Shown here: piece after piece, positions 5,486 through 26,653 of the stretch
Layout of the letters: the number at the start of each line of letters is the position of its first letter
Position numbering within the stretch: the first letter of the stretch is position 1
DNA from: Anaerolineae bacterium
GTDB lineage: Bacteria > Chloroflexota > Anaerolineae > B4-G1 > SLSP01
Direction: 5' to 3'
NCBI GenBank assembly: GCA_016931315.1
Contig: JAFGFB010000199.1
Span: 882 to 64,881 of the forward strand
Length of the DNA: 64,000 nucleotides
The notes under the pieces: model-generated
Database searches by the model: none
What the model saw: only the letters and a program-made list of their open reading frames with translations
What the model was told of the DNA's origin: nothing
Position numbers and translations under genes: made by a program

Positions 5486-5620
5486 AGAATTGCACCTTGC
5501 CACGATGTCTATAGCGGGACTTTAGTTGGGTGGTTAGAACCTCCAAGCAGGAATTTCTGGCTGAGTTCTTTTTATGCGTTGATACTGCCACTGCGCTGTA
5601 CTATTAGTTGGAGGCGGAAA

Positions 5621-6727
5621 ATGGAATCAACTTTCGATTGGGATGATTGGCGTGCTCAGTTGCAGCATCGTATTACCACGCTTGAGGCACTGCAGAAATG
5701 GATTACTGTGTCACCTGGAGAAGCCCAAGCAATTGCGGCTTGCGACGGGCGATACCGTTGGAGTGTGACGCCTTATTACGCTTCTCTTATGGATCAGAAC
5801 GACCCTAATTGCCCTGTTCGTCAACTTGCTGTGCCACGCCTGGAGGAGTTTCAGCTCTATCCCGGCGCCAGTGTGGATCCTGTGGGTGACACTGTTCATC
5901 GGAAAACAAATCGGGTGATCCACAAATACCCGGACCGGGTGATTGTTCTGGTGACGGAGCTCTGCGCCGTCTATTGCCGGCACTGCACGCGCAAATACCA
6001 CACGACGGATCTTGGTGGAACATACTTTGAGCAGGGTGAAAACGCTTCCTGGGAACCGGATTTCGCCTATATTGAGCAGCATCCCGAGGTGCGCGACGTG
6101 TTGCTCACTGGGGGTGATCCTCTCGTCTATTCTGATGAGCGTTTGGAGCCGATTCTGGCGCGTTTGCGTGCCATCCCGCACGTGGAAATTATTCGCATTG
6201 GAAGTCGTATCCCGGTGGTTCTGCCGCAGCGCATTACCGAGAATCTGGCGACGATGCTGGAGCGCTATCATCCACTGTGGTTCAATACCCATTTCAACCA
6301 TCCGAAGGAGATCACACCTGCGGCAGCGGCAGCCTGTGATCGTTTGCTGCGCCACGGGATCGTCGTGCAGAATCAGAGCGTGCTCCTCAAGGGTATCAAT
6401 GATGATTTGCCGACGCTGCGCCGGTTAATGACAGAGCTGTTGAAAATCCGCGTTCGTCCCTATTATCTCTATCACTGTGATAATGCTATCGGCATTTCCC
6501 AGTTCGTAACGACTATAGAGGCGGGACGGGCGTTGATGCGAGGGCTAAAGGGCTATCTGACTGGCTTTGGTGTGCCGGAATATGTGATTACCACACCGCT
6601 GGGCAAGATTCCTTTGTGTGAGGAGCATTTGTACCAGGATGAGGCGGGTTATTGGGTGGAGAATTACCGGGGACAAAAAATGCTTCTTGATAAAGCCTTG
6701 TTGTTTACAGAGACCGATGGTTGTTGA
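5621..6727 (+). CDS. KamA-family radical SAM aminomutase (lysine 2,3-aminomutase-like)
   Basis: Radical SAM CxxxCxxC motif in the KamA context (VTELCAVYCRHCTRK), LTGGDPL motif, and the usual C-terminal region. The internal Met at 5621 (MESTFDWDD...) is a likelier start than 5579. The exact substrate (lysine vs glutamate, or EpmB-like) is not determinable by eye. Confidence 0.8.
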   Translation: MESTFDWDDWRAQLQHRITTLEALQKWITVSPGEAQAIAACDGRYRWSVTPYYASLMDQNDPNCPVRQLAVPRLEEFQLYPGASVDPVGDTVHRKTNRVIHKYPDRVIVLVTELCAVYCRHCTRKYHTTDLGGTYFEQGENASWEPDFAYIEQHPEVRDVLLTGGDPLVYSDERLEPILARLRAIPHVEIIRIGSRIPVVLPQRITENLATMLERYHPLWFNTHFNHPKEITPAAAAACDRLLRHGIVVQNQSVLLKGINDDLPTLRRLMTELLKIRVRPYYLYHCDNAIGISQFVTTIEAGRALMRGLKGYLTGFGVPEYVITTPLGKIPLCEEHLYQDEAGYWVENYRGQKMLLDKALLFTETDGC

Positions 6728-6749
6728 GCCGACATTGGAGGAGTAGAAA

Positions 6750-7769
6750 ATGGCATCCGAATTACCGCAGAAGAAACGTTTCATCAGCCTCAGGGTCAAG
6801 TTGTTGGTGGGTTTCACGCTATTATTTATGGTTGTTTTTGCCATCGCGTTTTATTGGTTCTATACCTTCGCGACCGATGTGGCTATGCGTCAGATTGAGG
6901 AGGATATGCTCACTACGTTGGAAGGGGGTTTAAAGGGTATTGATGGCGACGCCTTCGTTGCATTGGCGGAAGAGGCTGAACTGCGCGACGATGGTTTGAG
7001 TGATGATCCTCGCTATTGGGACCATATGGCCTGGATTGAGACCATCCACGATTTGGAACCTCGCGCTAATCCTTACAGTTGGGTTCGAGGCGATCCGAAT
7101 GTACAAAATGAGGTACTCTTCATTGGTGATATTCTGCGCGTGACCCAACCTGAGAATGCCACAGTTTTCCGTGAGCCTTATATTACTCAGGGCTCAATGA
7201 TTACCGGTATGTTAACGCTGTGGGAAGACCTGGAGCCTTACCAGGATGATTGGGGGCACTGGATTTCCGCCTATGCGCCTATCCTCAACTCTGCCGGAGA
7301 ATCGGTAGGGGGTTTAGGCATTGATTTTCGTGCTGATTATGTCTACCAGGTTCAGGATTCAATCGAGGATCGCATTCTGATTTCTTTTGCCATCACCTAT
7401 CTGGCGCTGTTTGTATTGGTATATCTCATTTCTCGCACCTTAACGGGGCCTATCATTTCTTTGACGGGTGTTGCTCGTGGGGTTGCTGACGGAAATTACG
7501 ATCAGGATATTAGCAAACTCTACGGTGGCAAGACTCAGGACGAGGTAGATGCGCTGGCACAAGTCTTCGAATTGATGGTGAGTAAAGTCCGTGCTCGTGA
7601 GGAGGGGCTCAAGCGCCAGGTGCAGCAGCTACGAATCGAGATTGACGAAGTGAAGCGAACCCGGCAGGTAGAGGAGATCACCGGATCGGACTATTTTACG
7701 ACACTCAAAGAGAAAGCGCGCGTGCTCCGTCAGCAAAGCGTGACCGATGGTGGAGTTGAAGAGAGCTGA
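6750..7769 (+). CDS. Membrane sensor: TM1 - periplasmic domain (~170 aa) - TM2 - HAMP-like segment - conserved C-terminal coiled-coil module ending in an EEITGSDYF motif
   Basis: Hydrophobic helices LLVGFTLLFMVVFAIAFYWFYTF and ILISFAITYLALFVLVYLISRTL. A HAMP-like stretch TGPIISLTGVARGVADGNYDQD...LAQVFELMVSKV follows. The C-terminus QVQQLRIEIDEVKRTRQVEEITGSDYFTTLKEKARVLRQQ has a paralogous copy in the gene at 14392-15114. Confidence 0.6.
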   Translation: MASELPQKKRFISLRVKLLVGFTLLFMVVFAIAFYWFYTFATDVAMRQIEEDMLTTLEGGLKGIDGDAFVALAEEAELRDDGLSDDPRYWDHMAWIETIHDLEPRANPYSWVRGDPNVQNEVLFIGDILRVTQPENATVFREPYITQGSMITGMLTLWEDLEPYQDDWGHWISAYAPILNSAGESVGGLGIDFRADYVYQVQDSIEDRILISFAITYLALFVLVYLISRTLTGPIISLTGVARGVADGNYDQDISKLYGGKTQDEVDALAQVFELMVSKVRAREEGLKRQVQQLRIEIDEVKRTRQVEEITGSDYFTTLKEKARVLRQQSVTDGGVEES

Positions 7770-7835
7770 GACGTGGCATGGGGTGTCTTGCTCGTTGCTC
7801 TTAATTAGTGACCATATTTCCAGAGGAGGCAATGT

Positions 7836-8612
7836 ATGTCCAAAATTATATCTATCCATTCTTTCCGTGGCGGTACGGGGAAATCTAACATCTCCGCGAA
7901 CGTCGCTTCACAGCTGGCGCAGCGTGGCAATCGCGTGGGCGTCATTGATACCGATATCCAATCCCCAGGTATCCACGTTCTCTTTGGCATGGACGAGGAG
8001 CAGATTGACAAGTCGCTCAACGATTACCTGTGGGGGCGCTGCAATATCGAGGATACTGCCTACAATGTCAGCGCGCGCATTGGCAAGGGTGAGGTCATTG
8101 TCATGGGGGCGGATATCTATTTGATTCCCTCTAGCATTCGCGCTGGGGAAATCGCCCGCGTCTTGCGCGAGGGTTATGACGTCAGTATGCTGAATGAGGG
8201 CTTCCGTGCCCTGGTGAAGCGTCTCAAACTCGACTATCTCGTTATTGATACCCATCCGGGCCTGAATGAGGAAACGTTGCTCTCTATCGCTATCTCCGAT
8301 ATCCTCTTTATCATCCTGCGCCCCGATCAGCAAGACTTCCAGGGAACCGCGGTGACGGTAGATGTTGCGCGTAAGCTGGAAGTGCCGCATCTCTTCCTGG
8401 TCATTAACAAAGCGCTTTCCTCCTATGATTTCGACGACCTGAAGAAAAACGCCGAACAAATTTACGACGCCCCTGTAGCTGCGATCCTGCCGCTATCTGA
8501 GGATGTGGCTCGTCTGCAATCCACAGATATCTTCTCGCTCCGTTTCCCGGACCATCCTGTCTCCGCCGCTATTCGGCAGATTGTCGGGTATGTTGAGGCA
8601 ATTGGGAAATGA
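7836..8612 (+). CDS. MinD/ParA-superfamily P-loop ATPase
   Basis: Deviant Walker A SIHSFRGGTGKSNISANVASQLAQRG, with Arg in place of the usual signature Lys. It is followed by a DTD motif and the general MinD/ParA fold pattern. Strong GAGGAGG RBS upstream. Confidence 0.8.
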   Translation: MSKIISIHSFRGGTGKSNISANVASQLAQRGNRVGVIDTDIQSPGIHVLFGMDEEQIDKSLNDYLWGRCNIEDTAYNVSARIGKGEVIVMGADIYLIPSSIRAGEIARVLREGYDVSMLNEGFRALVKRLKLDYLVIDTHPGLNEETLLSIAISDILFIILRPDQQDFQGTAVTVDVARKLEVPHLFLVINKALSSYDFDDLKKNAEQIYDAPVAAILPLSEDVARLQSTDIFSLRFPDHPVSAAIRQIVGYVEAIGK

Positions 8613-8824
8613 TCTGCCATGAGTGTGGAGCTCCTGCTATAGGTATTTGCAAGTTTTGTGGACGCGCCGTATGTAAGGATCATTACACCACGGTGACGCC
8701 TATCGTTCTGGCGATGTATCTGGGCCGGCAGAATACTCCAAAAGCTGTGGTTGTGAGCAATGTTCTTTGGTGTGGCAAGTGTCAGCCTCAGCCAGAGCCG
8801 ATAGAAATTCCTGAGTTTTTCTAG
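8609..8824 (+). CDS. Small zinc-ribbon protein (four Cys pairs), translationally coupled to the MinD-like ATPase
   Basis: MICHECGAPAIGICKFCGRAVCKDHY...WCGKCQ carries CxxC...CxxC...CxxC arrangements. Its ATG overlaps the ATPase stop (ATGA at 8609-8612). Confidence 0.5.
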   Translation: MICHECGAPAIGICKFCGRAVCKDHYTTVTPIVLAMYLGRQNTPKAVVVSNVLWCGKCQPQPEPIEIPEFF

Positions 8825-8834
8825 GAGGGCAGCC

Positions 8835-9227
8835 GTGGGACTCTTCAAACATTTGCAAGATGAGGTTCAGGAGCGCGAGAAGCGCGAGGGTATTACCCTG
8901 GCTGACTTGCTGGAACTCGACCCCCCGCTGCGTCGTGTGATGAATCGGGTGACTCGCTATGGGGAGATGACGGTGCCTCAAGCTGTCGAACTCCTGGAGG
9001 ATACACCGGAGAATATCACTCAGATGTTGAATACTCTCGCCGAGAAAGGCTATCTCCTGCGGGAGAAGGGTCCAGAAGGCTGGGTTTACCGCGTGCATTT
9101 GGCTCGTAAGCGTGGTACATCGTTGCCGCCGGGCGTGTGGTCTGCATTGGGGAGCCAGCTACAACCGGAGCCCTCGGATGCTCCTGACGAAGACTCTGAA
9201 GACATCGTGGAAACTGAAACGCCCTAA
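8835..9227 (+). CDS. Winged-helix (MarR/ArsR-like) DNA-binding protein with acidic C-terminal tail
   Basis: ITLADLLELDPPLRRVMNRVTRYGEMTVPQAVELLEDTPENITQMLNTLAEKGYLLRE...WVYRVHL matches helix-turn-helix plus wing topology. The C-terminus is PEPSDAPDEDSEDIVETETP. Confidence 0.5.
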   Translation: MGLFKHLQDEVQEREKREGITLADLLELDPPLRRVMNRVTRYGEMTVPQAVELLEDTPENITQMLNTLAEKGYLLREKGPEGWVYRVHLARKRGTSLPPGVWSALGSQLQPEPSDAPDEDSEDIVETETP

Positions 9228-9262
9228 GTGTTCATGTCTCCTTTGGATCGCTGGCATAACAG

Positions 9263-10462
9263 GTGGAAAGAGCTATGCAGATTTTTCTGGCTGCTTTGAT
9301 TGCGGGAGGCATCCCTCTCATCTTCCTTTTCGTCATCTATGCACTTGATCTCTATGCCTCCCGCACTTTTCGCCTGGTGCTTGCCTGTTTTGCCTGGGGC
9401 GCCATTGGCGGCGTTGGACTTGCCTATCTTTTCAATACCCGTGTGGCGGTTCCCTTTATTCAGCGCTATCGCCTTGACCTGCTATGGCTCTATGTGGTTT
9501 TTGCGCCTATCGCTGAGGAGCTTTTCAAATCTCTCTCCCTCTTCCCTGTATCTCGTCACCGTGATTTTACCTATTTTGTTGATGGCGCGATTTATGGTTT
9601 TGCTTCCGGTATCGGTTTTTCCATTACTGAGAACTTCCTCTATATTAGCCAGGCTCCCAGATCGGCAATCTTGCTGGCGCTTATCCGTGCTTTCTCTACC
9701 TGTTTGATGCACGGCAGCGCTGCTGCCCTGGTGGGCGTGGCGGTGGGGCGTTTCCGTTTCCGCCGCGGGGTTCATCGCGGGCTGGCCGTTGTGGGCGGGT
9801 GGGGAGCCGCTATTCTGCTGCACGCTTTCTTCAATGCGATTGGGCAGGCAAATCTTGTGGGCTCTGGTCTGGTAACGCCACTATCTGTTGCCATCGGACT
9901 TCTGGGCGTGGGCTTGATTGCCTTTTTCATCAACCGGGGTCTCCAAGAAGAGGGCAAGTGGATGCTGGAGACTCTGGATCGCCAGGTTGAGGTGAGCGGC
10001 GCCGAGGCCCGCGCTGCCCAGTCTTTTGCCACGCTGGAAGAGCTTTTGGCGCCGTTGGCAGTTACCTTTCCTGAGAAAGCGGAGCAGATCGAGGCTCTGG
10101 TGTTGCATCAGGCGAAATTCGGCATCAAACGGAAGATTTTCCAGCAGCTAGAAGCGCCGGAAGCCAGGACGCGTTTGCAGCAAGAGCTGGATGAGATGCA
10201 GGTGGAGATGGAAACGTTGCGCCGGCAGATTGGCAGCTATGCCATGATTTATGTGCGCAGCGTTTTTCCTGAGGGGCGTGTAAATGTCTGGTCGAACCTG
10301 GAACTTGTAGTGCGCCAGGACCAACCTGCCGATGTGGCGCGTTGGACTACACTGCTCACGGCAAAGGATGCTGCTGGTGCTGCGCCGTCAGCGCGCAGTA
10401 TCTTTGGGCGCCTGGGCGAAATTCAGCAAGAGAAACACCAGGGGAATGACGCCGGCCAATGA
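9263..10462 (+). CDS. PrsW-family intramembrane metalloprotease with ~170-aa cytoplasmic coiled-coil extension
   Basis: Polytopic N-terminal half carrying PrsW signature motifs (APIAEELFKS = EExxK; GFSITENFLY; MHGSAAALVG = HxxxxA). The C-terminal half is rich in coiled-coil-like heptads (QQELDEMQVEMETLRRQIG). Confidence 0.65.
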   Translation: MERAMQIFLAALIAGGIPLIFLFVIYALDLYASRTFRLVLACFAWGAIGGVGLAYLFNTRVAVPFIQRYRLDLLWLYVVFAPIAEELFKSLSLFPVSRHRDFTYFVDGAIYGFASGIGFSITENFLYISQAPRSAILLALIRAFSTCLMHGSAAALVGVAVGRFRFRRGVHRGLAVVGGWGAAILLHAFFNAIGQANLVGSGLVTPLSVAIGLLGVGLIAFFINRGLQEEGKWMLETLDRQVEVSGAEARAAQSFATLEELLAPLAVTFPEKAEQIEALVLHQAKFGIKRKIFQQLEAPEARTRLQQELDEMQVEMETLRRQIGSYAMIYVRSVFPEGRVNVWSNLELVVRQDQPADVARWTTLLTAKDAAGAAPSARSIFGRLGEIQQEKHQGNDAGQ

Positions 10463-13400
10463 ACCGGTGGCGGGTTGTGCTGCCGCCACTCTACCTGCCG
10501 TGCTGCAAGATTACCTTTCTCCTTCTTTGTGGGAGCAGCTGCAAGCAGAACCCACTCGCCGAGGGTTGTTGCTTGATGCTCTCACTGCCTTGCATTCCTT
10601 TGTTTACTTGCTTTCCACGTACCTGCCCCATCCGCTTGTTGAAGCGCTTAAGCGCGACCCAGCGCCTGGCCAGATTGGCGGCGAGTGTTTGGAGGGCAGT
10701 CTGCTCTTTGCCGATGTGAGCGGCTTTACGGCGCTTTCGGAGCGCCTGGCAGCTCAGGGATCCATCGGCGTTGAAACCCTTACCGGGCACATCAACACTT
10801 ACTTTGACGCCATGGTCCAGGTCCTGGCGCGTTCTTCCGGCGCGTTGCTCAAGTTCGCGGGAGATGCCCTGCTCGCCTATTTTCCCTTGCAGGCCAATGG
10901 ACGACACGCGCAATGGGCCAGTCGCGCGGCGCAGCGCATGATGCGCGTCATGGGCGCTTTTGCCGCTTTGGAAACCCCCGCCGGACCGGTCGCGCTTCGC
11001 ATGAAGATAGGGCTGGCTACCGGTCCCTTTGTGGCAGTAAAAGCCGGTGTGCCGGAGCGGATGGAGTACGTCGTTTTTGGTGAGACGGTCTCCCGTACCC
11101 TGGCGCTGGAGGGCACGTTGAGCGCTGGACAAATTGGTGTAGATGCAGCGACTGCGGCGCTCCTGGCGCCAGCGCAAATTCAACCTCATACCGGCGATTT
11201 CTTCCTCTTTGCCTTGGATAACGCCGAAGAACACGCCGATTTTGAAATTCAGGTTGAAGGTCAGCGGCGCGGTCGCAGCAGCGGCTTGTTGATGGCTTCA
11301 CATGAGGAACTTCACGCACAGATTACCCTCGCGCTGCGCCAGATTCAGGCCTTGAGTGCTTTCTTGTCGGCACCGCTTGTGGAATTGTTGTTGGTGCACG
11401 CCCATCAGCGACAGCTGCCGGCGGAAAATCGTCCCGCCGCAATTCTCTTCTTCAATCTGACCGGGATCGAGCCGTTGTGGGATTCCGCGAATCCACACAC
11501 ATTGCCTCGCGCCACACAGGTTTTGAATGCTTGTTTCAACGTAGTGCAGACAAGTGTCGCCCGCTACGGAGGCATAATTAGCCGTATTGACCCTTATAAG
11601 GTGGGGTCCAAAATCCTTGCCATATTTGGTGCGCCCGTAGCGCATGAGGATGATCCCCTGCGTGCGGTGCGGGCTGCCCTCGATGCGCGGGCCGGGCTCG
11701 CCGGGTTGCTTGCGCGTTGGGAGCGCGATTCTACCCTGGCCGCAGACCCGGCCTGCGGCCAGGACGCAGGGATTGCGCTGCAGGCGGGCATCGCTTACGG
11801 ACCCACATTTGCGGGGCCTGTTGGTGCGGCAATTCGCCGTGAATATACGCTCATGGGAGACGACGTCAATCTTGCTGCGCGGCTAATGGGCGCGGCGCAA
11901 CCGGGGCAGATTCTTGTAGCTCCCGCCGTAGCTGTCTCCATTCAAGCCGCCGTAAAACTGACGGCGCTAGCTCCGTTGCGGCTCAAGGGAAAGCGCGATC
12001 CGGTCCCCGTTTTTCAGGTTGAAAGTCTGGGGCATGATCCCTTGTCACGCCGGTTGGCGCTTCGAGGGCCACTTTTGGGACGGGAAGCTGAGTTGGGACT
12101 GGCACGTGCAGCCTTGCAAAAAGCGCTCTCTGGGAAGGGGAGCCTGTTGAGTGTGGTCGGCGAACCAGGGATTGGAAAGAGCCATTTCGCCGATACGTTG
12201 GCGGCTGAGGCGCGGGCCCAGGGTGCCAGTGTACACCTTAGCACATGTGCCGCTTATGCACTTGCCACTCCTTATGCCCCGTGGATTGCTCTCATCCGGA
12301 CGCTGGCTCATCTTGCACCCGAACTGGCGGGTGAGGCTGCTGCGCGGCAGCTTTTGGAATGGCTCGCGCGTGAGGGCTGCCTTGCCGAAGATATCTCCGC
12401 GCCTCTATTGCAGTTGTTCGGTTTGCCTGTGCTTTCGCTGGGAAACATACCCACCTTCGGAGAATCTGTGAATTCGCCCGTACCAGTTCGTCCCGGACTC
12501 TTTCAGCGTCTTGGCGCGCAGGTTGCGCCATCCCCTGCGGCTCCTGTCAGGGCTTCGCTCTGGCAGCTGGCTCGTGAGCGACAGCATGTGCCTGGCGGCA
12601 GCGATACATGGCGTCAACTGGAGCGCCGTATCGCCGACCGTGTGCAGACCCGGCTTTTCAATGCCATGGAGCATTTGTGGACTGCGTTAGCACAGAAGTC
12701 GCCCCGCGTGTTGATTTTTGAGGATGTTCACTGGCTTGATGCGCCTTCGCGCAATTTGCTGACGCATTTAGTCGGTGCGCTCTCTGATTATCCGGTGTTA
12801 TTTTTGATCACCTGCCGCCCGGCAGAGAGGGCGGGGAACACTTTTTCCGCACAGGTGATTTCTTTAGGGCCTCTGACGCCGAAAGCAGTTGAGGCTTTGG
12901 TGTCTCATCTACTGGGTGCAGATAGTCTTTCGGGTGAACTACTGGCGCTAATGCCCACGTTGATGGCGAAGACTGGCGGAAATCCGTTGTTTATCGAGGA
13001 ACTCTGTGCCTGGTTTCGGCGCAACGGGGTCCAGGATCTTGAAGCCGGATTGCGGCACTCGTTGACTCTCCAGGAACTGGTGCTAAGCCGTTTGGATACG
13101 CTCTCACATGTGGAGGGGATGGCGGTGCGCGCCGCATCGGTCGTGGGTAACGATTTTCAGGTGTCTGAACTGGCTGCGCTGTTGCACGAGACTGTGCCCA
13201 CTCACTTGTCGCCGGCCCTTGAGGGGTTGGAGAACGCCCGTTTCACTTTTGCTATGCCGCAGGTGAATGTTGAGCATGGCGCCGTGGCACATTCCTTTTG
13301 CCAAACCCTGGTTCGCGAGATGCTCTATGACTCGCAACCTCTTGTCCGGCGCCGTCAACTTCATGCCCGGTTGGCGGAGTATCTTCGCACCAATCATGCA

Positions 13401-14363
13401 GCCGACCTCGCGGCTGTGGCGGAAGAGCTCGCTTATCACTATCTTCAGGCCAGCGCCTGGCTTGAAGCGAGCCGTTTCGCCCTTCTGGCAGGGACCAAGG
13501 CGCAATCCCGCGCTGCCTACGAGGCGGCTCTGGAGCATTACACGGCTGCGGAGCAGGCATTGACGCATCTTTCGGGGGCGAAAAATGCGACGCCGGAGGC
13601 ACGTGATTTATGGGGGCGTGTGCGTGTGGGGCAGGGTGATGTGGCATTCCTTCAAGGTCACTTTGAAGCCGCTGGGCAAGCTTATGCTGCGGCGCACCCC
13701 GATTTGCAGGATGCTCCGCAACTACTGGCGCGCGCCGTGTTGGTGCGACCTCTCTTGAAGCCGGGTGTATCCATGCTGGAGATGACGGAGGATGCATGGA
13801 ATGTGCTTGAATCAGCGGGAACGGCGTTACCTGCCATCGCTGCTGTGCTCGCGTGGTTTCACTGGCGTGAGGGCGACCTTCAGGTGGCGTGCAGGTGGGC
13901 AGAACGCGGCAGCCCAAATGCGTTGATGGCGTTCATTGGTGGCGATTTGCAGAAGGCATGGGGCAGCTACCAGGCTGAGAAGGAACTGGCTGGTGCGGCG
14001 TTGGTCGCACTGCAGCTGGCTGAATCTCAGTCTGCACAGGGTGCCGCGAAGTTGTGGTTGGCGCGCGCCACAGAAGATTGGACGCGCGAGGACGACGCTT
14101 GGGGAATGGTGCTGGTGCAATGCAAACAGGCACACCTCCTCCGGCTACAAGGTGATCTTTCGGCTGCTGCTCGGATTGTCGAAGAGGCGCGCTCGTCGTT
14201 GCAGCTGGTATCTGCGCAGGTCTTCGATTCAGAAACGCCTACGGTTGTTCCGGATGCGGGGGATTTTGAAGTCTGCATTCTAGGGCAACGACGCTATGAG
14301 GATATCTTTCATGCTCTGTATCTCTTTAATCTATTGACACCTTTCTCGCCGGAAGTACAATGA
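10446..14363 (+). CDS. Tandem class III adenylate/guanylate cyclase domains + STAND/AAA ATPase + TPR-like helical C-terminus
   Basis: Cyclase domain 1 (LLFADVSGFTALSERL...KFAGDALLAYF). Cyclase domain 2 (AILFFNLTGIEPLW...KILAIFGAPVAHEDDPLRAVRAALD...REYTLMGDDVNLAARLM). P-loop GEPGIGKSHFA and Walker B-like VLIFEDVHWLD. Long alpha-helical C-terminus. The start at 10446 (MTPANEPV) overlaps the PrsW stop by 17 nt; the ORF formally opens at 10332. Confidence 0.8.
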   Translation: MTPANEPVAGCAAATLPAVLQDYLSPSLWEQLQAEPTRRGLLLDALTALHSFVYLLSTYLPHPLVEALKRDPAPGQIGGECLEGSLLFADVSGFTALSERLAAQGSIGVETLTGHINTYFDAMVQVLARSSGALLKFAGDALLAYFPLQANGRHAQWASRAAQRMMRVMGAFAALETPAGPVALRMKIGLATGPFVAVKAGVPERMEYVVFGETVSRTLALEGTLSAGQIGVDAATAALLAPAQIQPHTGDFFLFALDNAEEHADFEIQVEGQRRGRSSGLLMASHEELHAQITLALRQIQALSAFLSAPLVELLLVHAHQRQLPAENRPAAILFFNLTGIEPLWDSANPHTLPRATQVLNACFNVVQTSVARYGGIISRIDPYKVGSKILAIFGAPVAHEDDPLRAVRAALDARAGLAGLLARWERDSTLAADPACGQDAGIALQAGIAYGPTFAGPVGAAIRREYTLMGDDVNLAARLMGAAQPGQILVAPAVAVSIQAAVKLTALAPLRLKGKRDPVPVFQVESLGHDPLSRRLALRGPLLGREAELGLARAALQKALSGKGSLLSVVGEPGIGKSHFADTLAAEARAQGASVHLSTCAAYALATPYAPWIALIRTLAHLAPELAGEAAARQLLEWLAREGCLAEDISAPLLQLFGLPVLSLGNIPTFGESVNSPVPVRPGLFQRLGAQVAPSPAAPVRASLWQLARERQHVPGGSDTWRQLERRIADRVQTRLFNAMEHLWTALAQKSPRVLIFEDVHWLDAPSRNLLTHLVGALSDYPVLFLITCRPAERAGNTFSAQVISLGPLTPKAVEALVSHLLGADSLSGELLALMPTLMAKTGGNPLFIEELCAWFRRNGVQDLEAGLRHSLTLQELVLSRLDTLSHVEGMAVRAASVVGNDFQVSELAALLHETVPTHLSPALEGLENARFTFAMPQVNVEHGAVAHSFCQTLVREMLYDSQPLVRRRQLHARLAEYLRTNHAADLAAVAEELAYHYLQASAWLEASRFALLAGTKAQSRAAYEAALEHYTAAEQALTHLSGAKNATPEARDLWGRVRVGQGDVAFLQGHFEAAGQAYAAAHPDLQDAPQLLARAVLVRPLLKPGVSMLEMTEDAWNVLESAGTALPAIAAVLAWFHWREGDLQVACRWAERGSPNALMAFIGGDLQKAWGSYQAEKELAGAALVALQLAESQSAQGAAKLWLARATEDWTREDDAWGMVLVQCKQAHLLRLQGDLSAAARIVEEARSSLQLVSAQVFDSETPTVVPDAGDFEVCILGQRRYEDIFHALYLFNLLTPFSPEVQ

Positions 14364-14391
14364 CGTGAAGCTGTTACACATAAGGGGTGAA

Positions 14392-15114
14392 ATGATGCTT
14401 GATTCCACGGTACTCAAAAATGTTCCACTGTTTGCCCATCTTTCCGATACCGAGCTGGCGCAATTGCGGGCTGTCTTGACAGAACGGCATTTGAATACGG
14501 GTGACATCCTGTTCAAAATGGGTGAGGCAGGGGAGGAATTGTATATCGTGCGCCAGGGTCGCGTTGCGATCTATGTACCCAACCCTGAAACACCAGGGAA
14601 AGAGCAGCCGATTCGGATTTTCGAGCCTGGAGAGGCGTTAGGCGAGATGGCGTTGATTGACCGGCAACCACGCTCGCTCAGTGCTCGAGCTTTGGAGCCT
14701 GCCGTACTGCTTGCACTCACCGGTGAGGAGTTCCACCGGTTATTAGCTGCGCACCCCCAGCTGGCGCTGAGTGTGATGAGTGGATTGAGTGACCGCATTC
14801 GCTACACGACCGAATTCCTGAGCGAGGTGCGCGGGTGGGTGCAGCGTGTGGCGGCGGGCAAGTATGACCGTGCTGGTAGTGCAAATCAGGATTATGCTGA
14901 TCCTTCGATTGCTGCCCTGGCTGCCGAGTTTACCCAGATGGCAGTCCAGGTGCAGCAGCGCGAGGAAGCACTGCGCCAAGAGGTGCTGCAATTGCGTATC
15001 GAGATTGACGATTCCAAGCGCAAACGCCACGTGGAAGAAATCACCGGTTCGGATTATTTCCAATCTCTCCAGCAACGGGCACGTCGTCTCCGCGACGAAA
15101 AGGGTGAGGAGTAA
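14392..15114 (+). CDS. Cyclic-nucleotide-binding (CAP/Crp-type cNMP) domain protein with the same C-terminal HAMP-like + EEITGSDYF module as the 6750 sensor
   Basis: cNMP-binding signature VPLFAHLSDTELAQLRAVLTERHLNTGDILFKMGEAGEELYIVRQGRVAIY...FEPGEALGEMALIDRQPRSLSARA. The C-terminal 100 aa align residue-for-residue with the C-terminus of the 6750-7769 product. Start 1 nt after the upstream cyclase stop; the internal ATG at 14392 follows AAGGGGTGA. Confidence 0.75.
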   Translation: MMLDSTVLKNVPLFAHLSDTELAQLRAVLTERHLNTGDILFKMGEAGEELYIVRQGRVAIYVPNPETPGKEQPIRIFEPGEALGEMALIDRQPRSLSARALEPAVLLALTGEEFHRLLAAHPQLALSVMSGLSDRIRYTTEFLSEVRGWVQRVAAGKYDRAGSANQDYADPSIAALAAEFTQMAVQVQQREEALRQEVLQLRIEIDDSKRKRHVEEITGSDYFQSLQQRARRLRDEKGEE

Positions 15115-15178
15115 CCGCGTCCTGTCTCGTGTCTTATAGTGCAGTTTGCGCAATCGGTTTATTGGGGAGGCGGTAGCC

Positions 15179-18100
15179 ATGCAATGTTCAGCATGCGGTA
15201 ATCTCAATCCAGGCACAGCCCGTTTTTGTATGTATTGCGGGGCAGCCCTTGTCAAGGGTAAGGTCTGTGCGCGTTGCTTCACGTTATTGCCCGTAGAAGC
15301 GCGTTATTGTTTTCATTGTGGCGCCTTTCAGGGTGAATCCGAGGGTCTCAGCCCCACACCGGTGACGCCAGCGGCAAGCACCACGTCGAGAGTTTCCCCC
15401 GTGGTCTCCATCCCCCGCGAACCCATCATGTCTGAAGCTGAGCCGGTAGCCTCTTTGGACGTTGCTTTGCCGCCTGAGCGTTCATTGGAAGCGTTGCGCA
15501 ATGACTTGCGGCGTTATTTGCCGGACTCGCTCTATGAACCGCTGGAGCGCCGCCCCAAGGATCGGGACATCCTCGCGGTGCGGGATCATCTTAGCGCTCT
15601 GTTGAGCACGGTGAAGACCTACCTCCCAGGTCCTGTGGTGTTAGCGCCGCAACCGGCCGGTGAGCCAGCTGGGGGCATGTTGCAAGGCGTGTTTCTCTTT
15701 GGTGATGTTTCGGGCTTCACGCCGCTCTCCGAACGTTTGAAGCCTCTGGGACATGAGGGCGCTGAGCGGATTACCGGCATCATCAATGCCTTGTTCTCAC
15801 AATTGGTGCGGGTGCTTTTTGCTCATGGTGGGACTTTGTTGAAGTTTGGTGGTGACGCGCTGTTGGGGCTGTTCCCCGCAGGTAACAAGGCTGAGCTTGC
15901 GGCAGGGGTGTTGCGCGCAACGCAGGCTGCCTTGGAGATGCAGGCGGTCATGAAGCGCGATGAGTTTGCGGCTATTGATGCCCTTGGTGAGACTCAAGCT
16001 CTGAAAATCAAGTGCGGCATCTCTGCCGGGCCTTATTTTGCCGCCCATATCGGGACCTCTCCGCAACCCGACTCAGGCGATTTGGGTTCGATGGCGTACG
16101 TGACTACCGGACACACGGTGAATCTGGCTGAAGAGTGTGAGGGGCATGCCAATCCGGGTGAAGTGGTTTTGCCGACAGCGGTTTGTACTCTGGTCGAAGG
16201 ACAACTAGAGACTGCACCGGTGACCAAGTCTCCGGACCCGGCTTTTTTTCGGGTGTCGAAGGTGTTGGTGGCTCTTCCGGAGGTTCCGGAGCAACTGTTT
16301 GCCGCTGAGCCGCCTGAGGGGTCTCCTTTGGCGCAAATCACTTACCTCGCCGACCGCTTGAACCGGCTGACTCCCTATCTATCCGTCGAGCTTCTCAGCC
16401 GTATTGCCCTTAACCCGCGTGATGCGCGCATTGCACCCGACCACCGTCCCGTTACTGTGATGTTTGTGAATTATGTGGGCATCAGCGACCTGATCGAGGA
16501 CCTGGGGGAAAGCCATCCTCAGATCATCGTGGAACAGCTCAATGCTTACTTCATGTGGATGGCGCAGGTCGTGGAGAAATATGAGGGGGCGTTGGCGCGT
16601 ATGGATCAATACGCCGTGGGTGACCGGTTGGTGATCTTTTTCGGCGCGCCGCGCGCGCACGAGGATGACCCTGTGCGCGCGGTCTATACGGCGCTGGAGA
16701 TGCAAGCCCTTACTCGGGAGCGTTTTTCGGCTCTCCAAACCCCCTTTGGTATCTATCGCTTCCGCCAGCGTATTGGTATCAATACTGGCACGCTCTTCGC
16801 GGGAAATGTGGGCGCGTCTGACCTGCGTCAGGAATATACGCTCATGGGTGATGATATCAATATGGCGGCGCGGCTGATGTCGTATGCAGAGTGGGGTAAA
16901 ATCTACATTAGCAACAAAACTGAAGAACGGGTGCGCCCCTTCTTTGAGTTGAGCGACCGTTTCGATTTGAAGGTGAAGGGCAAGGCGATTCTCATCCCAA
17001 CCTATAAAGTGCTGGGACCGCGTGACGAGGTCGGACCTACACGGGGCCTGGAAAGTGGTGAATCCCCGCTTATCGGGCGTCAGGAGGCATTGGCACAGTT
17101 GCAGCAGGTCGGGCAGCGTTTCCTCGGCGGGCGCGGGCAGATTGTGGCATTGTTGGGAAATAGCGGCTTGGGCAAATCCCGGTTGTTACGGGAATTGCAG
17201 CGGTGGTATGCCGGGCAGCCTGAGGCGGCAGAGTTGCGCTGGATCGAAGCGCGCCCTTTTTCCTTTAGCGAGCACATTAACTACTGGCTGGCGCGCGAAA
17301 TGCTACGCACTATGCTGGGATTGGCTCCGGATGCTGATGAGAACGAAATACTCTTCCAACTCTGGGAGCAGACCGAAAGCCTGCTGGGCAAAGAAAAAGC
17401 CCGCGAAATTGCGCCTTTTTTGGCCTATCTGATGAATTTGCCGTTGGAGGGTGTTTGGGCGCAGGAGGTCAAAGACCTTAGCCCGCAGGTGCGCCAGAAG
17501 GAGATTCTCTGGGCGGCGCGGGAATTTTTTAGCGCCGCTGCCCGGCGCGGACCGCTGTTGATTGCTCTGGATGACCTGCATTGGGCGGATGAAGCATCGC
17601 TGGCGTTGGTGGAAACTTTGTTGGCGGTGACCGATCAGGCGCCGTTGCTGTTTTGCCTGGCCTCCCGCCCTACACGCGATAAGCGCAGCTGGCAATTACG
17701 CAATGTCGCCGCTGGCAATTTTCCCCATCGCTATACTGAGGTGCAACTCCAACCCCTGCTTCGTGAGCAGAGTCAGAGCTTGCTTCAGGCGTTATTGCCT
17801 GGCGCCCAATTCTCTGAGGCGACGTTGGTAGATATTTTCGATAAATCTGCCGGAAACCCATTCTATCTGGAAGAAGTGGTACGCTCCCTTATTGAAAGCG
17901 GCGCTGTGGCACCGGAGGCGGTGCCGCTATCAGGTGTTGAGGGGGCTGAGAGCAAGGCGCAGAGCTTAAGACGATGGCATGTGACCTCCCGTATTGAGCA
18001 GATTACGGTTCCCACGAGCCTCCATGCTGCGATTGTCTCGCGTATTGACCGGTTGACGGAGGATGCCCGACAGGGGTTGCAGATGGCTGCGGTCCTCGGG

Positions 18101-19489
18101 CGACAGTTCCGCGTTGACTTATTGCGTGGTGTCTCACAGGCTAATGAAGAAGTGGATTTGTGGTTGGCGCAGTTGGAGCGTGGAGGACTGCTGCGCTCAA
18201 CTGAGACGGGGGACATGCCCACTTACGCTTTCCCAGATACTCTGGTCCAGGAGGTAGCCTACGACAGCATTTTGGTACAGAATCGCAGTCAGTGGCATCG
18301 TCGAGTGGGTGAGGCGTTAGAGGCATTAAGCGAGGATGGTTCGGTACAACTACAGCAGTTGCTGGCATATCATTTCAGTCGCAGTGATGATGGCGCAAAA
18401 GCAGTCAAGTATTTGCAACTGGCAGCAAAACAGGCTCGCGAAGACTACGCCAATGAGACAGCAATCGCCTATTATCAGCAGCTTCTGGAATGGCAGCAAA
18501 AAGCCCATGATTTAGCGGGGCAGGCACAGGCGCGCTATGCGATGGGGGTTATGGCTTATGAAATCGGCGATTATGACCGAGCGACCCCATGGTTGGAGGA
18601 GGCGACCGCGCTCTACCGGCAACTGGAGGATGAAGCCAATGAGGCGTGGAGTGCTATGTATCAGGGAATGGTGGCTCTGAAGCGGGGTTTCTATGCGGAA
18701 GCGACGGTGTATCACCAGCGTGCGCTGGAGCTGGCTCGAAAGCGTGCTGACGGATTCCAGGAAGGTATTCACCTGACTAACCTGGCGCGGGTGACGCTGC
18801 GTTTGGGCGATTATCCGCAAGCCTTGGAACAATTCCATGCCTCTTTGGCTTTGAAGCAGCAGAACGCCGATGTGACTGGACAGGCCTTTGCCTGGTTCTA
18901 TTTGGGATTGACCCATCTCTTCTGTGGTCAGTATGAAGCTGCGGGTGAGGCTTTCGAGGCCTCGTTGGCATTATGGCAGCAAGTGCCCAAGAATGAACGC
19001 GGTGTCTCCTATTGTCAGTATGGGTTGGGGCTGTTGGCATTGCAGCAAGAACGTTATGCTGAGGCTGTCGGCTATTTCCGGCGCGCGCATGCCACCAGTG
19101 TCAAGTTAGTGTTGAAGGCAGAGATTATCGAGAATCTCTCCTTTCTGGGACGCGCAGAATTGGGGTTGGGGCACTGTGAGGCAGCTCTGGCAGTCTCAAA
19201 AGAGGCGATAGACTTGTTGCGTACTCAGCGTGACGTCGAGGCTGTTCAGAGCATTTATCTGAACCATTTTACCATTCTGAGCGCCTGCGGCGCCCCTGAT
19301 GCCACAATGGCATTGATGAAGGCCCATGAGATTGTGATGGAGCAGGCGCAACATCTTGAGACTGAATTTGCACGGGCGCGATTTTTAGAGCAGATTCCTG
19401 CAAACCGGGAGATTCTGTTGGAGGCGCAGCACCAGGGGGATTTACCACCGCATACTCCACTTTCCCCTGTGTCTGACGCGAGCGCTTGA
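15179..19489 (+). CDS. Double zinc-ribbon + tandem class III cyclase domains + STAND/AAA ATPase + TPR repeats
   Basis: N-terminus CSACGNLNPGTARFCMYCGA...CARCFTLLPVEARYCFHCGA (two zinc ribbons). Cyclase domains (VFLFGDVSGFTPLSERL...KFGGDALLGLF; VTVMFVNYVGISDL...RLVIFFGAPRAHEDDPVRAV...EYTLMGDDINMAARLM). P-loop GNSGLGKSRLL and LLIALDDLHWADEASL. Clear TPR-like repeats near the C-terminus. GGGGAGG RBS before the ATG at 15179. Confidence 0.85.
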   Translation: MQCSACGNLNPGTARFCMYCGAALVKGKVCARCFTLLPVEARYCFHCGAFQGESEGLSPTPVTPAASTTSRVSPVVSIPREPIMSEAEPVASLDVALPPERSLEALRNDLRRYLPDSLYEPLERRPKDRDILAVRDHLSALLSTVKTYLPGPVVLAPQPAGEPAGGMLQGVFLFGDVSGFTPLSERLKPLGHEGAERITGIINALFSQLVRVLFAHGGTLLKFGGDALLGLFPAGNKAELAAGVLRATQAALEMQAVMKRDEFAAIDALGETQALKIKCGISAGPYFAAHIGTSPQPDSGDLGSMAYVTTGHTVNLAEECEGHANPGEVVLPTAVCTLVEGQLETAPVTKSPDPAFFRVSKVLVALPEVPEQLFAAEPPEGSPLAQITYLADRLNRLTPYLSVELLSRIALNPRDARIAPDHRPVTVMFVNYVGISDLIEDLGESHPQIIVEQLNAYFMWMAQVVEKYEGALARMDQYAVGDRLVIFFGAPRAHEDDPVRAVYTALEMQALTRERFSALQTPFGIYRFRQRIGINTGTLFAGNVGASDLRQEYTLMGDDINMAARLMSYAEWGKIYISNKTEERVRPFFELSDRFDLKVKGKAILIPTYKVLGPRDEVGPTRGLESGESPLIGRQEALAQLQQVGQRFLGGRGQIVALLGNSGLGKSRLLRELQRWYAGQPEAAELRWIEARPFSFSEHINYWLAREMLRTMLGLAPDADENEILFQLWEQTESLLGKEKAREIAPFLAYLMNLPLEGVWAQEVKDLSPQVRQKEILWAAREFFSAAARRGPLLIALDDLHWADEASLALVETLLAVTDQAPLLFCLASRPTRDKRSWQLRNVAAGNFPHRYTEVQLQPLLREQSQSLLQALLPGAQFSEATLVDIFDKSAGNPFYLEEVVRSLIESGAVAPEAVPLSGVEGAESKAQSLRRWHVTSRIEQITVPTSLHAAIVSRIDRLTEDARQGLQMAAVLGRQFRVDLLRGVSQANEEVDLWLAQLERGGLLRSTETGDMPTYAFPDTLVQEVAYDSILVQNRSQWHRRVGEALEALSEDGSVQLQQLLAYHFSRSDDGAKAVKYLQLAAKQAREDYANETAIAYYQQLLEWQQKAHDLAGQAQARYAMGVMAYEIGDYDRATPWLEEATALYRQLEDEANEAWSAMYQGMVALKRGFYAEATVYHQRALELARKRADGFQEGIHLTNLARVTLRLGDYPQALEQFHASLALKQQNADVTGQAFAWFYLGLTHLFCGQYEAAGEAFEASLALWQQVPKNERGVSYCQYGLGLLALQQERYAEAVGYFRRAHATSVKLVLKAEIIENLSFLGRAELGLGHCEAALAVSKEAIDLLRTQRDVEAVQSIYLNHFTILSACGAPDATMALMKAHEIVMEQAQHLETEFARARFLEQIPANREILLEAQHQGDLPPHTPLSPVSDASA

Positions 19490-19749
19490 AGCTGTTGTCC
19501 CTGGCATGAAAGGCACGCTACTTTTTGAGGGCACCTTTTAACCTGGTGCAAAGTAAGGCGATTTACGCGCAAATGTTCTTCCTTTGAGTGTTTTTGCGGC
19601 GGGGTGCGACCATGTCGCAAAACACCATTTTCTCCCGCGTCTGTAGGGCGTCTGAAACTATCGTTTGTGACTGGAATACACCCCACTTTTTTGTGAATGC
19701 TCAGGTTCCCGTAGCGGGGCGCGAGTTTTGGGCTAGAACCTGTTCAAAA

Positions 19750-19808
19750 GCGTGTTTTGGGTTGCCGCGCTAAATGCCGTACTCGGCGCCGCGGCAACCA
19801 AAACACGC
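19750..19808 (+). promoter_or_regulatory. Long near-perfect inverted repeat (19-20 bp arms, ~20-nt spacer) in the cyclase/rpoC intergenic region
   Basis: GCGTGTTTTGGGTTGCCGCG at 19750-19769 pairs with CGCGGCAACCAAAACACGC at 19790-19808, with one bulged G. No U-tract follows, so it is not a canonical intrinsic terminator. It is either a factor-binding palindrome or a stable RNA hairpin. Confidence 0.4.
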
Positions 19809-19882
19809 TCCGAAATTGCGACTTCAGTTGCCTTTTGTCATGGCAAGCGGGGAACGTTGAATACTGACACTTTTTTCGATGG

Positions 19883-19910
19883 TTGACTTTTGAATAGATG
19901 CGGCTATAAT
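19883..19910 (+). promoter_or_regulatory. Sigma-70-type promoter TTGACT-16-TATAAT for rpoC
   Basis: -35 TTGACT at 19883-19888 and -10 TATAAT at 19905-19910, about 130 nt upstream of the rpoC ATG. The leader contains a perfect 18-bp palindrome TATGGCTCGCGAGCCATA at 19998-20015. Confidence 0.5.
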
Positions 19911-20041
19911 ATTCATTCGCCTATGACAACGGAAAGACACGTGGATGCGGAAGCGCTGAGAAGCCCGGAAGGGTTCTCGGACGCTTCTTTTGTGCTGTAT
20001 GGCTCGCGAGCCATATTCTTTGAGGGTCGTTTGAGACCATT

Positions 20042-24346
<4,305 letters not shown>

Positions 24347-26616: not shown

Positions 26617-26653
26617 ATTTGTGTCTCAAAAAGCATTAGAAGAGGAGGCAATC

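Follow-up and report, generated by a model that had tools for sequence, protein, structure and literature searches.

We analyzed a 64,000-nucleotide window of contig JAFGFB010000199.1 from the metagenome-assembled genome of an Anaerolineae bacterium and found a block of plus-strand genes, at positions 4145 to 19489, that encodes, with a probability we place at roughly 60%, signal transduction built on a MinD-type ATPase switch. An extracellular signal and cyclic AMP (cAMP) would converge on this switch, in place of a kinase, through a short C-terminal module shared by two of the encoded proteins, namely, a membrane sensor with a HAMP domain and a soluble protein that binds cyclic nucleotide monophosphates (cNMP). 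The other members are a zinc protein of 71 amino acids (Zn71), a winged-helix protein (wHTH), an intramembrane protease of the PrsW family and two giant proteins that join cyclase domains to a STAND NTPase (cyclase-STAND); genes for a polytopic membrane protein and a KamA-family aminomutase stand at the 5' end. The block combines this gene content with synteny in related genomes, a module common to two of its proteins, natural fusions of the module and of PrsW to the MinD-like ATPase in relatives, and intact catalytic motifs. Judged from sequence comparisons, its invariant core is the pair of module-bearing sensor and MinD-like ATPase. Each part comes from a known family, and the combination of sensors, module and MinD-like ATPase with cyclases of the soluble adenylyl cyclase (sAC) type and PrsW appears to be undescribed in the sources that we searched: no description of the module or the system was found in Pfam, NCBIfam, PADLOC or the searchable literature, subscription-only papers lying outside this scope.

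A C-terminal module and its proposed link to a MinD-like ATPase

The strongest evidence was provided by natural fusions, which indicate that the module links sensors to the ATPase, that PrsW is part of the same machine and that cAMP is an optional input. Starting from one apparent fusion, seen in a related locus (L023), a search retrieved cNMP-module-MinD fusions in 8 protein clusters, dCache-HAMP-module-MinD fusions in at least 7 clusters, one of them from the cyanobacterium Snowella, and REC-module-MinD fusions in at least 12 clusters. The order in these sensor fusions was invariably input, module and ATPase, with the sensor at the N terminus. A cNMP-module-MinD fusion is encoded in an otherwise typical cluster containing Zn71, wHTH, cyclase-STAND and PrsW. 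In another locus (L086), PrsW itself is fused to the MinD-like ATPase in a protein (P0459) that retains the PrsW cytoplasmic tail; homologues of Zn71 (56% identity) and wHTH come after this gene, and there is no cyclase nearby. One REC-module-MinD gene immediately follows that of a hybrid histidine kinase, the usual place of a response regulator. The corresponding order in the cyanobacterial loci L087 (3645-13404) and L088 is hybrid histidine kinase, REC-module-MinD, a SulP-STAS-cNMP transporter and a multi-REC/PAS protein, and the MinD-like ATPase appears, from this arrangement, to serve as a response-regulator output domain. An earlier note on this DNA, made from the sequence alone, had named proteolytic or ATPase-mediated steps as possible outputs; the ATPase-mediated output is the best-supported reading, given the sensor-module-MinD fusions and the module genes located beside the ATPase gene.

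The same note had proposed that the HAMP sensor and the cNMP protein share a C-terminal module. The comparison bore this out, with 52% identity over the ~85 to 87 C-terminal residues (E 6e-21). The window holds two copies only, one in the HAMP sensor (core at residues 283 to 332, nucleotides 7596-7745) and the other in the cNMP protein (nucleotides 14848-15093). The module is helical, spans ~50 to 85 residues and has the consensus ...REExLxxQVxxLRIEIDExKRxRxVxEITxSDYFxxL..., of which the terminal EITxSDYFxxL motif is often repeated in cyanobacterial copies. A profile built from the two copies matched 1938 clusters (50% identity) among 1.84 billion representative proteins, 796 of them at E<=1e-10, and the match was almost always at the extreme C terminus. 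When searched in isolation against Pfam at E<=5, the module had no family. The possibility that it is a signalling (S) helix was considered and rejected: the S-helix is a coiled coil of ~40 residues with an "ERT" signature that is located between two signalling domains (PMC1592074), whereas the module consensus lacks the ERT signature and the module is terminal rather than inter-domain.

The input domains of proteins with the module are of common bacterial types, and no further output domain accompanies them. Among those encoded beside the ATPase (n = 61), we detected HAMP (33), cNMP (18), dCache (15), sCache (13), GAF (12), CHASE2 (8), 4HB_MCP (6) and CHASE3 (6) domains; an unselected set of representatives (n = 101) contained HAMP (78), dCache (12), REC (5) and cNMP (5). 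The HAMP sensor of the window is composed of a transmembrane segment, an extracytoplasmic domain of ~165 residues, a second transmembrane segment, HAMP and the module, and lacks an enzymatic output domain. HAMP was the sole domain recognised by Pfam in this protein (6750-7769). A profile of its family retrieved only HAMP structures from the PDB, with no match for the extracytoplasmic domain, and some homologues matched sCache or dCache. In relatives, orthologues of the sensor gene immediately precede the MinD-like gene. In Nostocales (L059, 6614-7405, and neighbours), CHASE2 sensors carry the module; their genes adjoin DUF928 genes and lie upstream of the MinD-like gene.

The established role of ParA/MinD ATPases is that of positioning motors, and for many "orphan" members no partner is known. 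The MinD-like protein of the block matched Pfam AAA_31, ParA and CbiA, and shows the fold and the Walker A, A' (switch I Asp) and Walker B motifs of this family; residues invariant in the alignment include G12-S17, D38, D40 and D138 (Walker A, A' and B). Its Walker A reads RGGTGKS (F-R-G-G-T-G-K-S), in which the signature Lys of the deviant motif (xKGGxGK[ST]) is replaced by an Arg that was invariant in 12 aligned members. A structure model of a fusion protein was compared with known structures by Foldseek and matched Archaeoglobus fulgidus MinD-1 (TM-score 0.88), followed by MinD, FlhG, Soj and FleN. The scores against the MinD equivalogs were below threshold (44 versus 213 bits for TIGR01968 and 92 versus 202 bits for TIGR01969). 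The C terminus (...IRQIVGYVEAIGK) shows no obvious membrane-targeting helix. Pfam annotation of the window ORFs (open reading frames) detected no minC, minE or parB gene near the block. A canonical Min system (MinCDE) was ruled out on the basis of these equivalog scores and of the neighbours, a sensor and a zinc protein.

The main alternative is that the MinD-like protein is an ordinary ParA/MinD cargo motor that transmits no signal, the sensors, or a complex of sensor, PrsW and cyclase, being its cargo, in the manner of PpfA-TlpT or ParC-ParP with chemoreceptor arrays, and Zn71 and wHTH its nucleoid adaptors. The fold is plainly that of MinD/Soj, and the wHTH profile weakly matches AspA, which serves an archaeal ParA system as its DNA adaptor. 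Furthermore, the cargo of ParA/MinD ATPases is normally named by the gene neighbourhood, and receptor arrays are known cargos (PMC10241942). We nevertheless consider this alternative unlikely. Small soluble cNMP and REC partners hardly need placing, and covalent fusions of sensor, module and ATPase would make poor pairs of cargo and motor but good pairs of sensor and output. The REC-module-MinD protein behind a hybrid kinase resembles a response regulator in its position, and the presence of several paralogous sets in a single genome or locus (L005; L010 and L020; L082) is typical of signalling.

Conservation in relatives, the cAMP branch and the candidate outputs

To sample related loci, one genome per GTDB species was scanned with the two most conserved peptides of the MinD-like protein. 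More than 575 loci were found in species genomes, of which the best 80 were kept. All proteins of the window were compared with the kept loci, and the counts, given for 33 species-level loci from Chloroflexota and 44 loci from Cyanobacteria, refer to genes on the same strand near the MinD-like gene. Zn71 and wHTH were each present in 27 of the 33 Chloroflexota loci, cyclase-STAND in 25, the cNMP protein in 23 and PrsW in 18, as compared to 8 for the 446-residue membrane protein and 6 for KamA. A module-bearing ORF was found in 29/33 Chloroflexota and 20/44 cyanobacterial loci, and in both phyla the module gene is typically located immediately 5' of the ATPase gene. The identity of the MinD-like protein was 76-98% in the best 120 database clusters and 62-98% across Chloroflexota and Cyanobacteria, with a span from Anaerolineae to Nostoc.

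The earlier note had suggested examining the gene neighbourhoods of relatives for scattered homologues; gene set and order instead recur in the Chloroflexota loci. The complete order of the window (sensor, MinD, Zn71, wHTH, PrsW, cyclase-STAND, cNMP and, at the same position, the second cyclase-STAND) was found again in L002, L006, L007, L009, L017 and L024, and it is kept through the cNMP gene in L011, L019 and L021. A permuted order, with the cyclase ahead of PrsW, occurs in L005, L012, L023, L025, L089 and L090. The order of the window is retained in relatives despite an identity of just ~40% for the first cyclase. The flanking genes for a glycoside hydrolase of family 1 (GH1), QueA and CAP are kept in the two closest relatives only and were rejected as members of the system; the conservation of the cluster thus exceeds what common ancestry of the whole region would give. 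Several genomes or loci contain paralogous sets (L005; L010 and L020, from one metagenome-assembled genome; L012; L082), with two MinD-like/wHTH pairs in each of L005 and L012 and three tandem MinD-like genes in L082, a family expansion that is typical of signalling systems.

These data also bear on the view that the region consists of independent units placed side by side, namely, a metabolic pair, a unit of MinD, Zn71, wHTH and PrsW, and a cAMP unit. KamA and the membrane protein are present in just 6 to 8 of the 33 loci, and outside the window an additional Ddl-like ligase accompanies them in some relatives; the core occurs without cyclases, and a promoter-like site precedes the cNMP gene. 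In addition, the G+C content is 0.50-0.51 across positions 4001-8000 (membrane protein, KamA, sensor and ATPase genes) and 0.59 across 10001-14000 (first cyclase gene). However, the cAMP receptor and the HAMP sensor have the module in common, and in relatives the receptor is fused to the ATPase, so that the cAMP and MinD units are tied together; cyclase-STAND is found beside the ATPase in 25/33 loci despite deep divergence. An independent status is likely for KamA and the membrane protein; it does not hold for the cAMP branch with its shared module. As an account of the entire block, it is rather improbable.

Both giant proteins contain two Guanylate_cyc stretches and an AAA_16 domain (79 and 77 bits) in Pfam, in agreement with the four cyclase domains that the earlier note had counted. 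The Walker A sequences GEPGIGKS and GNSGLGKS were read from the two proteins, which have the features of STAND NTPases, and the second one also contains a DZR domain and TPR_12 (95 bits). The best PDB match of both cyclases was human ADCY10, with C1 and C2 colinear. In the alignment to ADCY10, C1 keeps both metal-binding Asp residues (FADVSGFT, KFAGDALL), whereas C2 lacks the metal Asp but retains Thr, Asn and Arg (REYTLMGDDVNLAARL); its substrate Lys was identified by eye only. An Asp-to-Thr change defines the class IIIb cyclases, and every prokaryotic member that has been tested, one of them from Chloroflexus, shows a response to inorganic carbon (PMC2613629). Tandem domains, the Asp pair in C1 and Thr/Asn/Arg in C2 correspond to the C1-C2 sequence pattern of this class. 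Judging from these residues, the giant proteins are sAC-type enzymes with the architecture C1-C2-STAND-TPR, and each should have one active site and produce cAMP. The cyclic-nucleotide synthesis that had been read into the sequence is consistent with this alignment, by which the enzymes look catalytically competent and adenylate specific.

The cNMP protein matched cNMP_binding with 78.9 bits and keeps the GE...RS phosphate-binding cassette, as read from its sequence. Of the route that the earlier note had sketched, from a signal to cAMP and on to a receptor with the shared module, the module and the step from cAMP to receptor stood, and cAMP as organising principle did not. As the core occurs without a cyclase (L086) and is served by Cache, GAF, CHASE2 and REC inputs, cAMP represents one input branch.

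Downstream of the ATPase gene, three proteins are candidates for the output. Zn71 has eight invariant Cys/His residues (C3, C6, C14, C17, C22, H25, C55 and C58), predicted to suffice for two zinc sites, and a conserved tail (PQPEPIEMPEFY); against Pfam at E<=5 it gave weak B-box/AN1/C5HCH-like matches only. The wHTH protein scored 19.9 bits with Penicillinase_R, under the cut-off of 22.6, and its family profile matched MarR, BlaI and ArsR structures in the PDB (E 0.004-0.015); NCBI names it a MarR family protein. The protein has an almost invariant MGxF peptide at its N terminus and a basic tail (RKRG...W..L) at its C terminus, and both could be contact peptides. PrsW matched PF13367 with 109.8 bits (cut-off 23.5), and the motifs AP..EE..K (EExxK), LMHG and LH..FN (LHxxFN) characteristic of the family show conservation of 90% or more among 20 homologues. 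Also conserved in these homologues is a C-terminal cytoplasmic domain of ~180 residues that is absent from the Bacillus subtilis enzyme, and the score against the B. subtilis equivalog NF033739 was 45 bits at a cut-off of 225. The idea that PrsW might release the wHTH is unlikely to hold, as the latter is short and soluble-looking, with no transmembrane segment apparent by eye. A repressor-protease pair of the BlaI/BlaR1 type was rejected, since Penicillinase_R scored below its cut-off and the protease is PrsW rather than M56. The earlier note had also named an unlinked anti-sigma factor as a target that PrsW might release. A pair of extracytoplasmic function (ECF) sigma factor and zf-HC2 (ZAS) anti-sigma factor is encoded at 24459-25599 (anti-sigma gene at 24988-25599), 5 kb downstream of the block and beyond rpoC, and in L030 (6719-8531) an ECF sigma gene with 36% identity abuts the PrsW homologue. 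ZAS anti-sigma factors are the substrate class that PrsW cleaves in B. subtilis.

The candidate outputs also allow a reading in which the block controls the production or export of a secreted peptide or natural product, such as a ribosomally synthesized and post-translationally modified peptide or a bacteriocin, through PrsW or wHTH. The cNMP protein and the cyclases showed a sub-cut-off likeness to the NCBIfam models "bacteriocin-type transport-associated" and "TOMM system kinase/cyclase". Relatives in Cyanobacteria adjoin C39-peptidase ABC exporters, HlyD, a radical SAM enzyme and a sensor fused to Nif11, PqqD and ABC genes are present in L005, and nonribosomal peptide synthetase genes lie near the L002 locus. 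We regard this reading as improbable, since these associations differ between lineages and no precursor peptide, exporter or maturation gene is located in or next to the block in the window. As to the cyanobacterial neighbourhoods themselves, the MinD-like genes of L066 (5135-16628), L075 (8197-13104), L067 and L068 are accompanied by genes for double-cNMP proteins, DUF7005, a radical SAM enzyme, an 870-residue protein without a Pfam family, C39-peptidase ABC exporters and HlyD, and one sensor in these neighbourhoods has an N-terminal Nif11 domain.

Least probable is an anti-phage system of the Pycsar/Avs type, in which infection would trigger cyclic-nucleotide synthesis by a STAND-gated cyclase and a cNMP-binding effector would bring about cell death or arrest: many defence systems use STAND-TPR sensors and the PADLOC PycC and Pycsar-effector models match the cyclases and the cNMP protein, but these matches cover generic cyclase and cNMP domains only, there is no TIR, transmembrane or other toxic effector, the cyclases are sAC-type, no mobile-element or tRNA genes flank the block, and an ATPase 74-98% identical in a locus syntenic across species-level genomes fits vertical inheritance rather than a mobile defence island. 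The cNMP protein was not assigned to Pycsar, its C terminus being the sensor module and not a killing domain.

Layout of the block and its surroundings

The earlier note had described nine co-directional genes starting at 5579. The re-derived ORFs, their coordinates and the gaps between them (22, 66, -4, 10, 35, -17, 1 and 64 nt) were identical to those claimed, and the start codon of Zn71 overlaps the stop codon of the MinD-like gene (ATGA). The nine genes are real; what had been missed is the gene for the 446-residue membrane protein upstream of them. The block thus most likely starts one gene earlier, at 4145 (Table 1), where a gap of 219 nt precedes it, as compared to gaps of at most 66 nt inside. 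Public gene calls on the identical contig differ at three starts only, and public records give the proteins of the block generic names only. The domain labels assigned earlier agree with Pfam and NCBIfam, the wHTH being weak in Pfam and backed by the profile search. Pfam detected no HisKA, HATPase_c, REC, CheW or MCP-signal domain in the nine proteins, which corroborates that two-component and chemotaxis parts are absent from them.

Table 1. Features of the putative signalling block in the 64,000-nucleotide window
Feature	Position	Strand	Basis and remarks
ORF, 446-residue polytopic membrane protein	4145..5485	+	Distantly TLC/NTT (ADP,ATP carrier)-like; accessory
ORF, KamA-family radical SAM aminomutase (arginine 2,3-aminomutase-like)	5579..6727	+	Public start 5621; accessory
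ORF, HAMP membrane sensor with C-terminal module	6750..7769	+	Pfam HAMP, PDB profile
ORF, MinD-like (ParA/MinD, SIMIBI) ATPase	7836..8612	+	Pfam, NCBIfam; putative hub of the system
ORF, 71-residue zinc protein (Zn71)	8609..8824	+	Alignment; two zinc ions predicted
ORF, 130-residue winged-helix protein (wHTH), MarR/BlaI/ArsR-like	8835..9227	+	Alignment and PDB profile
ORF, PrsW-family intramembrane protease	9263..10462	+	PF13367; public start 9275
ORF, first cyclase-STAND: C1-C2, AAA_16, helical repeat region	10446..14363	+	Pfam, ADCY10 alignment
Sigma-70-like site TTGACA-16-TACAAT	14334..14361	+	Just upstream of cNMP gene; possible internal promoter
ORF, cNMP-binding protein with C-terminal module	14365..15114	+	Pfam; public start 14395
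ORF, second cyclase-STAND: double zinc ribbon, C1-C2, STAND NTPase, TPR	15179..19489	+	Pfam
Strong hairpin, then small hairpin and U-run	19749-19809; 19818-19840	+	Terminator-like site; likely 3' end of transcription unit

The plus-strand gene run extends from 164 to 27847, so that the co-directionality of the nine genes alone is not special. Terminator-like sites within the block were at the level of chance (21 found versus 20.6 expected in shuffled sequence), in line with the claim that no internal terminator hairpin is present. Among the intergenic sequences from 4000 to 20100, the hairpin at 19749-19809 (dG -46.6 kcal/mol, z -4.3) is the sole strong or long inverted repeat, and its arm occurs a single time in the window. 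Promoter-like sites overall did not exceed chance (15 found versus 9.5 ± 3.2 expected). As a component of the signalling reading as a whole, it is fairly probable that positions 4145 to 19489 form one operon-like block whose genes are co-transcribed. Rfam and tRNA scans of the window gave no match, and neither its annotation nor the tRNA scan revealed mobile-element genes or a tRNA flanking the block.

KamA, which the earlier note had included in the system, is better regarded as accessory, being present in 6/33 loci and accompanied elsewhere by a Ddl-like ATP-grasp ligase. It contains CAVYCRHC (CxxxCxxC) and scored 610.4 bits with TIGR04468, arginine 2,3-aminomutase, the name that NCBI also gives it; given the small margin over the cut-off of 600, its substrate specificity is uncertain. 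The 446-residue membrane protein is 53% identical to the product of a gene inside the L005 cluster and adjoins the ATPase gene without KamA in L029 and L030. No Pfam family was found for it; its family profile weakly matched the NTT ADP,ATP carrier 9J3N (E 2e-4), and IMG names it ATP/ADP translocase. The Ddl-like ligase, recognised by eye from its motifs, is absent from the window and lies between the membrane gene and KamA in L009 (1293-2402), L010 (6838-7578) and L014 (6072-7064), and L014 has at this place an additional ORF of 208 residues that looks methyltransferase-like by eye. This arrangement hints at a small cassette for beta-amino-acid biosynthesis or transport, formed by KamA, the membrane gene and, elsewhere, the ligase; speculatively, KamA and the TLC-like protein may make or transport a compound derived from a beta-amino acid. 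Proteins of ~1000 residues in which a TLC-like membrane domain is fused to HEAT repeats are encoded in L028 (1120-4170) and also in L016, L026 and L027; they are distantly related to the 446-residue protein and adjoin cNMP proteins and the MinD-like gene.

Beyond the block, a spacer of 552 nt (19490-20041) containing the very stable hairpin and then a near-consensus promoter-like site (TTGACT-16-TATAAT) precedes rpoC, which stands alone at 20042-24346 between the signalling block and the ECF sigma gene; no rpoB is found among the annotated ORFs of the window. A 414-residue protein with a bactofilin domain is encoded at 26603-27847, after a short-chain dehydrogenase and on the same strand as the block. 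A dense glycoside hydrolase locus at 33091-54522, which takes up a large share of the remaining window, comprises two GH3, a GH5, an alpha-amylase family member, two GH38 and a GH2, and the GH1 gene is located at 164-1510.

Proposed mechanism and comparison with known systems

In the signalling reading, the HAMP sensor would pass the state of an extracellular ligand to its C-terminal module. In parallel, cAMP would be made in cis by the two sAC-type enzymes, acting as C1-C2 pseudo-heterodimers, whose STAND NTPase and TPR parts are presumably ligand gated and may add further inputs; it would be sensed by the cNMP domain of the soluble, module-bearing receptor. The module would act as the transmitter: it is proposed to bind the adjacent MinD-like ATPase and to shift its ATP-dependent dimer/ATPase cycle, both the contact and the direction of regulation being inferred. 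Partner proteins control ParA/MinD ATPases through short charged peptides, and the role of the module as controller of the ATPase would accord with this general rule that short partner segments govern these enzymes (PMC10241942). The state of the ATPase may then be read by Zn71, wHTH and the cytoplasmic tail of PrsW, with DNA binding or transcription as the putative output of wHTH and regulated proteolysis of some membrane substrate as that of PrsW.

Several observations weigh against this reading. Replacement of the Walker A signature Lys by Arg implies that canonical cross-dimer catalysis may differ. The known partner peptides of ParA/MinD ATPases are N-terminal and basic, whereas the module is C-terminal and of mixed charge. 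Two AlphaFold2 monomer models were compared with regard to a possible contact between module and ATPase. In the natural cNMP-module-MinD fusion, the module tail forms two short helices with a predicted local distance difference test (pLDDT) score of 84-91, and in the free cNMP protein it forms one long helix with a pLDDT of 75-80, a difference of only ~10 points that is at best weakly suggestive of docking on the ATPase. The module ORF ends within 400 nt of the MinD start in only 16/30 Chloroflexota loci. The cyanobacterial loci lack Zn71, wHTH and PrsW; the output layer is hence lineage specific, and its role is a guess. Finally, the near-consensus promoter-like site directly before the cNMP gene (an 11/12 match) means that the last two genes are possibly transcribed separately.

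A broader proposal, which we advance tentatively and to which we give a substantial though less than even chance, is that the block exemplifies a general, so far unrecognised route in which modular sensors (Cache-HAMP, GAF, CHASE2, cNMP and phospho-receiver) act through a transmitter of ~50 residues, LRIEID...KR...EITxSDYFxxL, on a dedicated MinD-type ATPase that in Chloroflexota may gate a two-zinc adaptor, wHTH and PrsW. Filamentous Chloroflexota and Cyanobacteria, in hundreds of species, would then possess a counterpart of two-component systems and conservons, which in the present block would be connected to cAMP synthesis of the sAC type. If this is true, a large and conserved clade of MinD-like proteins would be the output switch of ordinary sensors, operated by a transmitter module that databases do not list, and would constitute an additional signalling route beside one-component, two-component and Ser/Thr-kinase systems. 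A function would be assigned to at least 1900 clusters of proteins that lack an output domain and are annotated as "HAMP domain-containing" or "cyclic nucleotide-binding". Furthermore, a downstream receptor would be defined for bacterial relatives of mammalian soluble adenylyl cyclase, and cAMP would be tied to regulated intramembrane proteolysis by PrsW in the filamentous, hard-to-culture Anaerolineae. The sensor-ATPase pair is also carried by culturable cyanobacteria and hence is open to direct testing.

With ParA/MinD ATPases and their partners (MinD-MinE, ParA-ParB, PpfA-TlpT and ParC-ParP), the present system has in common the fold, the nucleotide motifs, a partner encoded next door and a short helical or charged partner segment as the likely contact (PMC10241942). 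It differs in that this segment is C-terminal on Cache/HAMP, GAF, CHASE2, cNMP and REC sensors and often fused to the ATPase, that MinC, MinE and ParB genes are not found, that Arg replaces the signature Lys and that a membrane-targeting helix is not obvious. The cyclases resemble ADCY10 and bacterial class IIIb enzymes in that C1 and C2 are predicted to pair as a pseudo-heterodimer, to which C1 contributes the metal Asp and C2 the Thr/Asn/Arg set, and in having a P-loop NTPase and a TPR region after this pair; here, however, two paralogues are placed inside an operon-like MinD/PrsW block and one has an N-terminal double zinc ribbon. As in the B. subtilis PrsW-RsiW-SigW system, the PrsW domain and its catalytic motifs are present, an ECF sigma/ZAS pair is encoded 5 kb away and L030 has an ECF sigma gene adjacent to that of PrsW, whereas the protein scores below the equivalog cut-off, has the extra cytoplasmic domain of ~180 residues and is linked, and once fused, to a MinD-like ATPase. 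Pycsar shares a class III cyclase encoded near a cNMP-binding protein; the absence of a toxic effector domain, the sAC-type cyclases and the conserved, vertically inherited locus set the block apart. Its nine proteins do not belong to a two-component or chemotaxis system, and relatives place REC-module-MinD behind a hybrid kinase.

In two further systems, a P-loop NTPase has a regulatory role. In FleN-FleQ of Pseudomonas, a MinD-like ATPase is likewise used for regulation with a link to a second messenger, and FleN was among the fold matches. FleQ is an AAA+ enhancer-binding protein that itself binds c-di-GMP, whereas in the block the receptor is a separate cNMP-module protein and the DNA-binding candidate is a wHTH of 130 residues. 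The Streptomyces conservons (CvnA-D) consist of a membrane sensor, a Roadblock protein, a DUF742 wHTH-like protein and a small GTPase. Their switch is a Ras-like GTPase and not a SIMIBI MinD-like ATPase, their adaptors are different, and the sensor of the block lacks a kinase-like domain; conservons and the block nevertheless have in common a HAMP membrane sensor, a P-loop NTPase switch, small adaptor or wHTH-like proteins and multiple paralogous copies.

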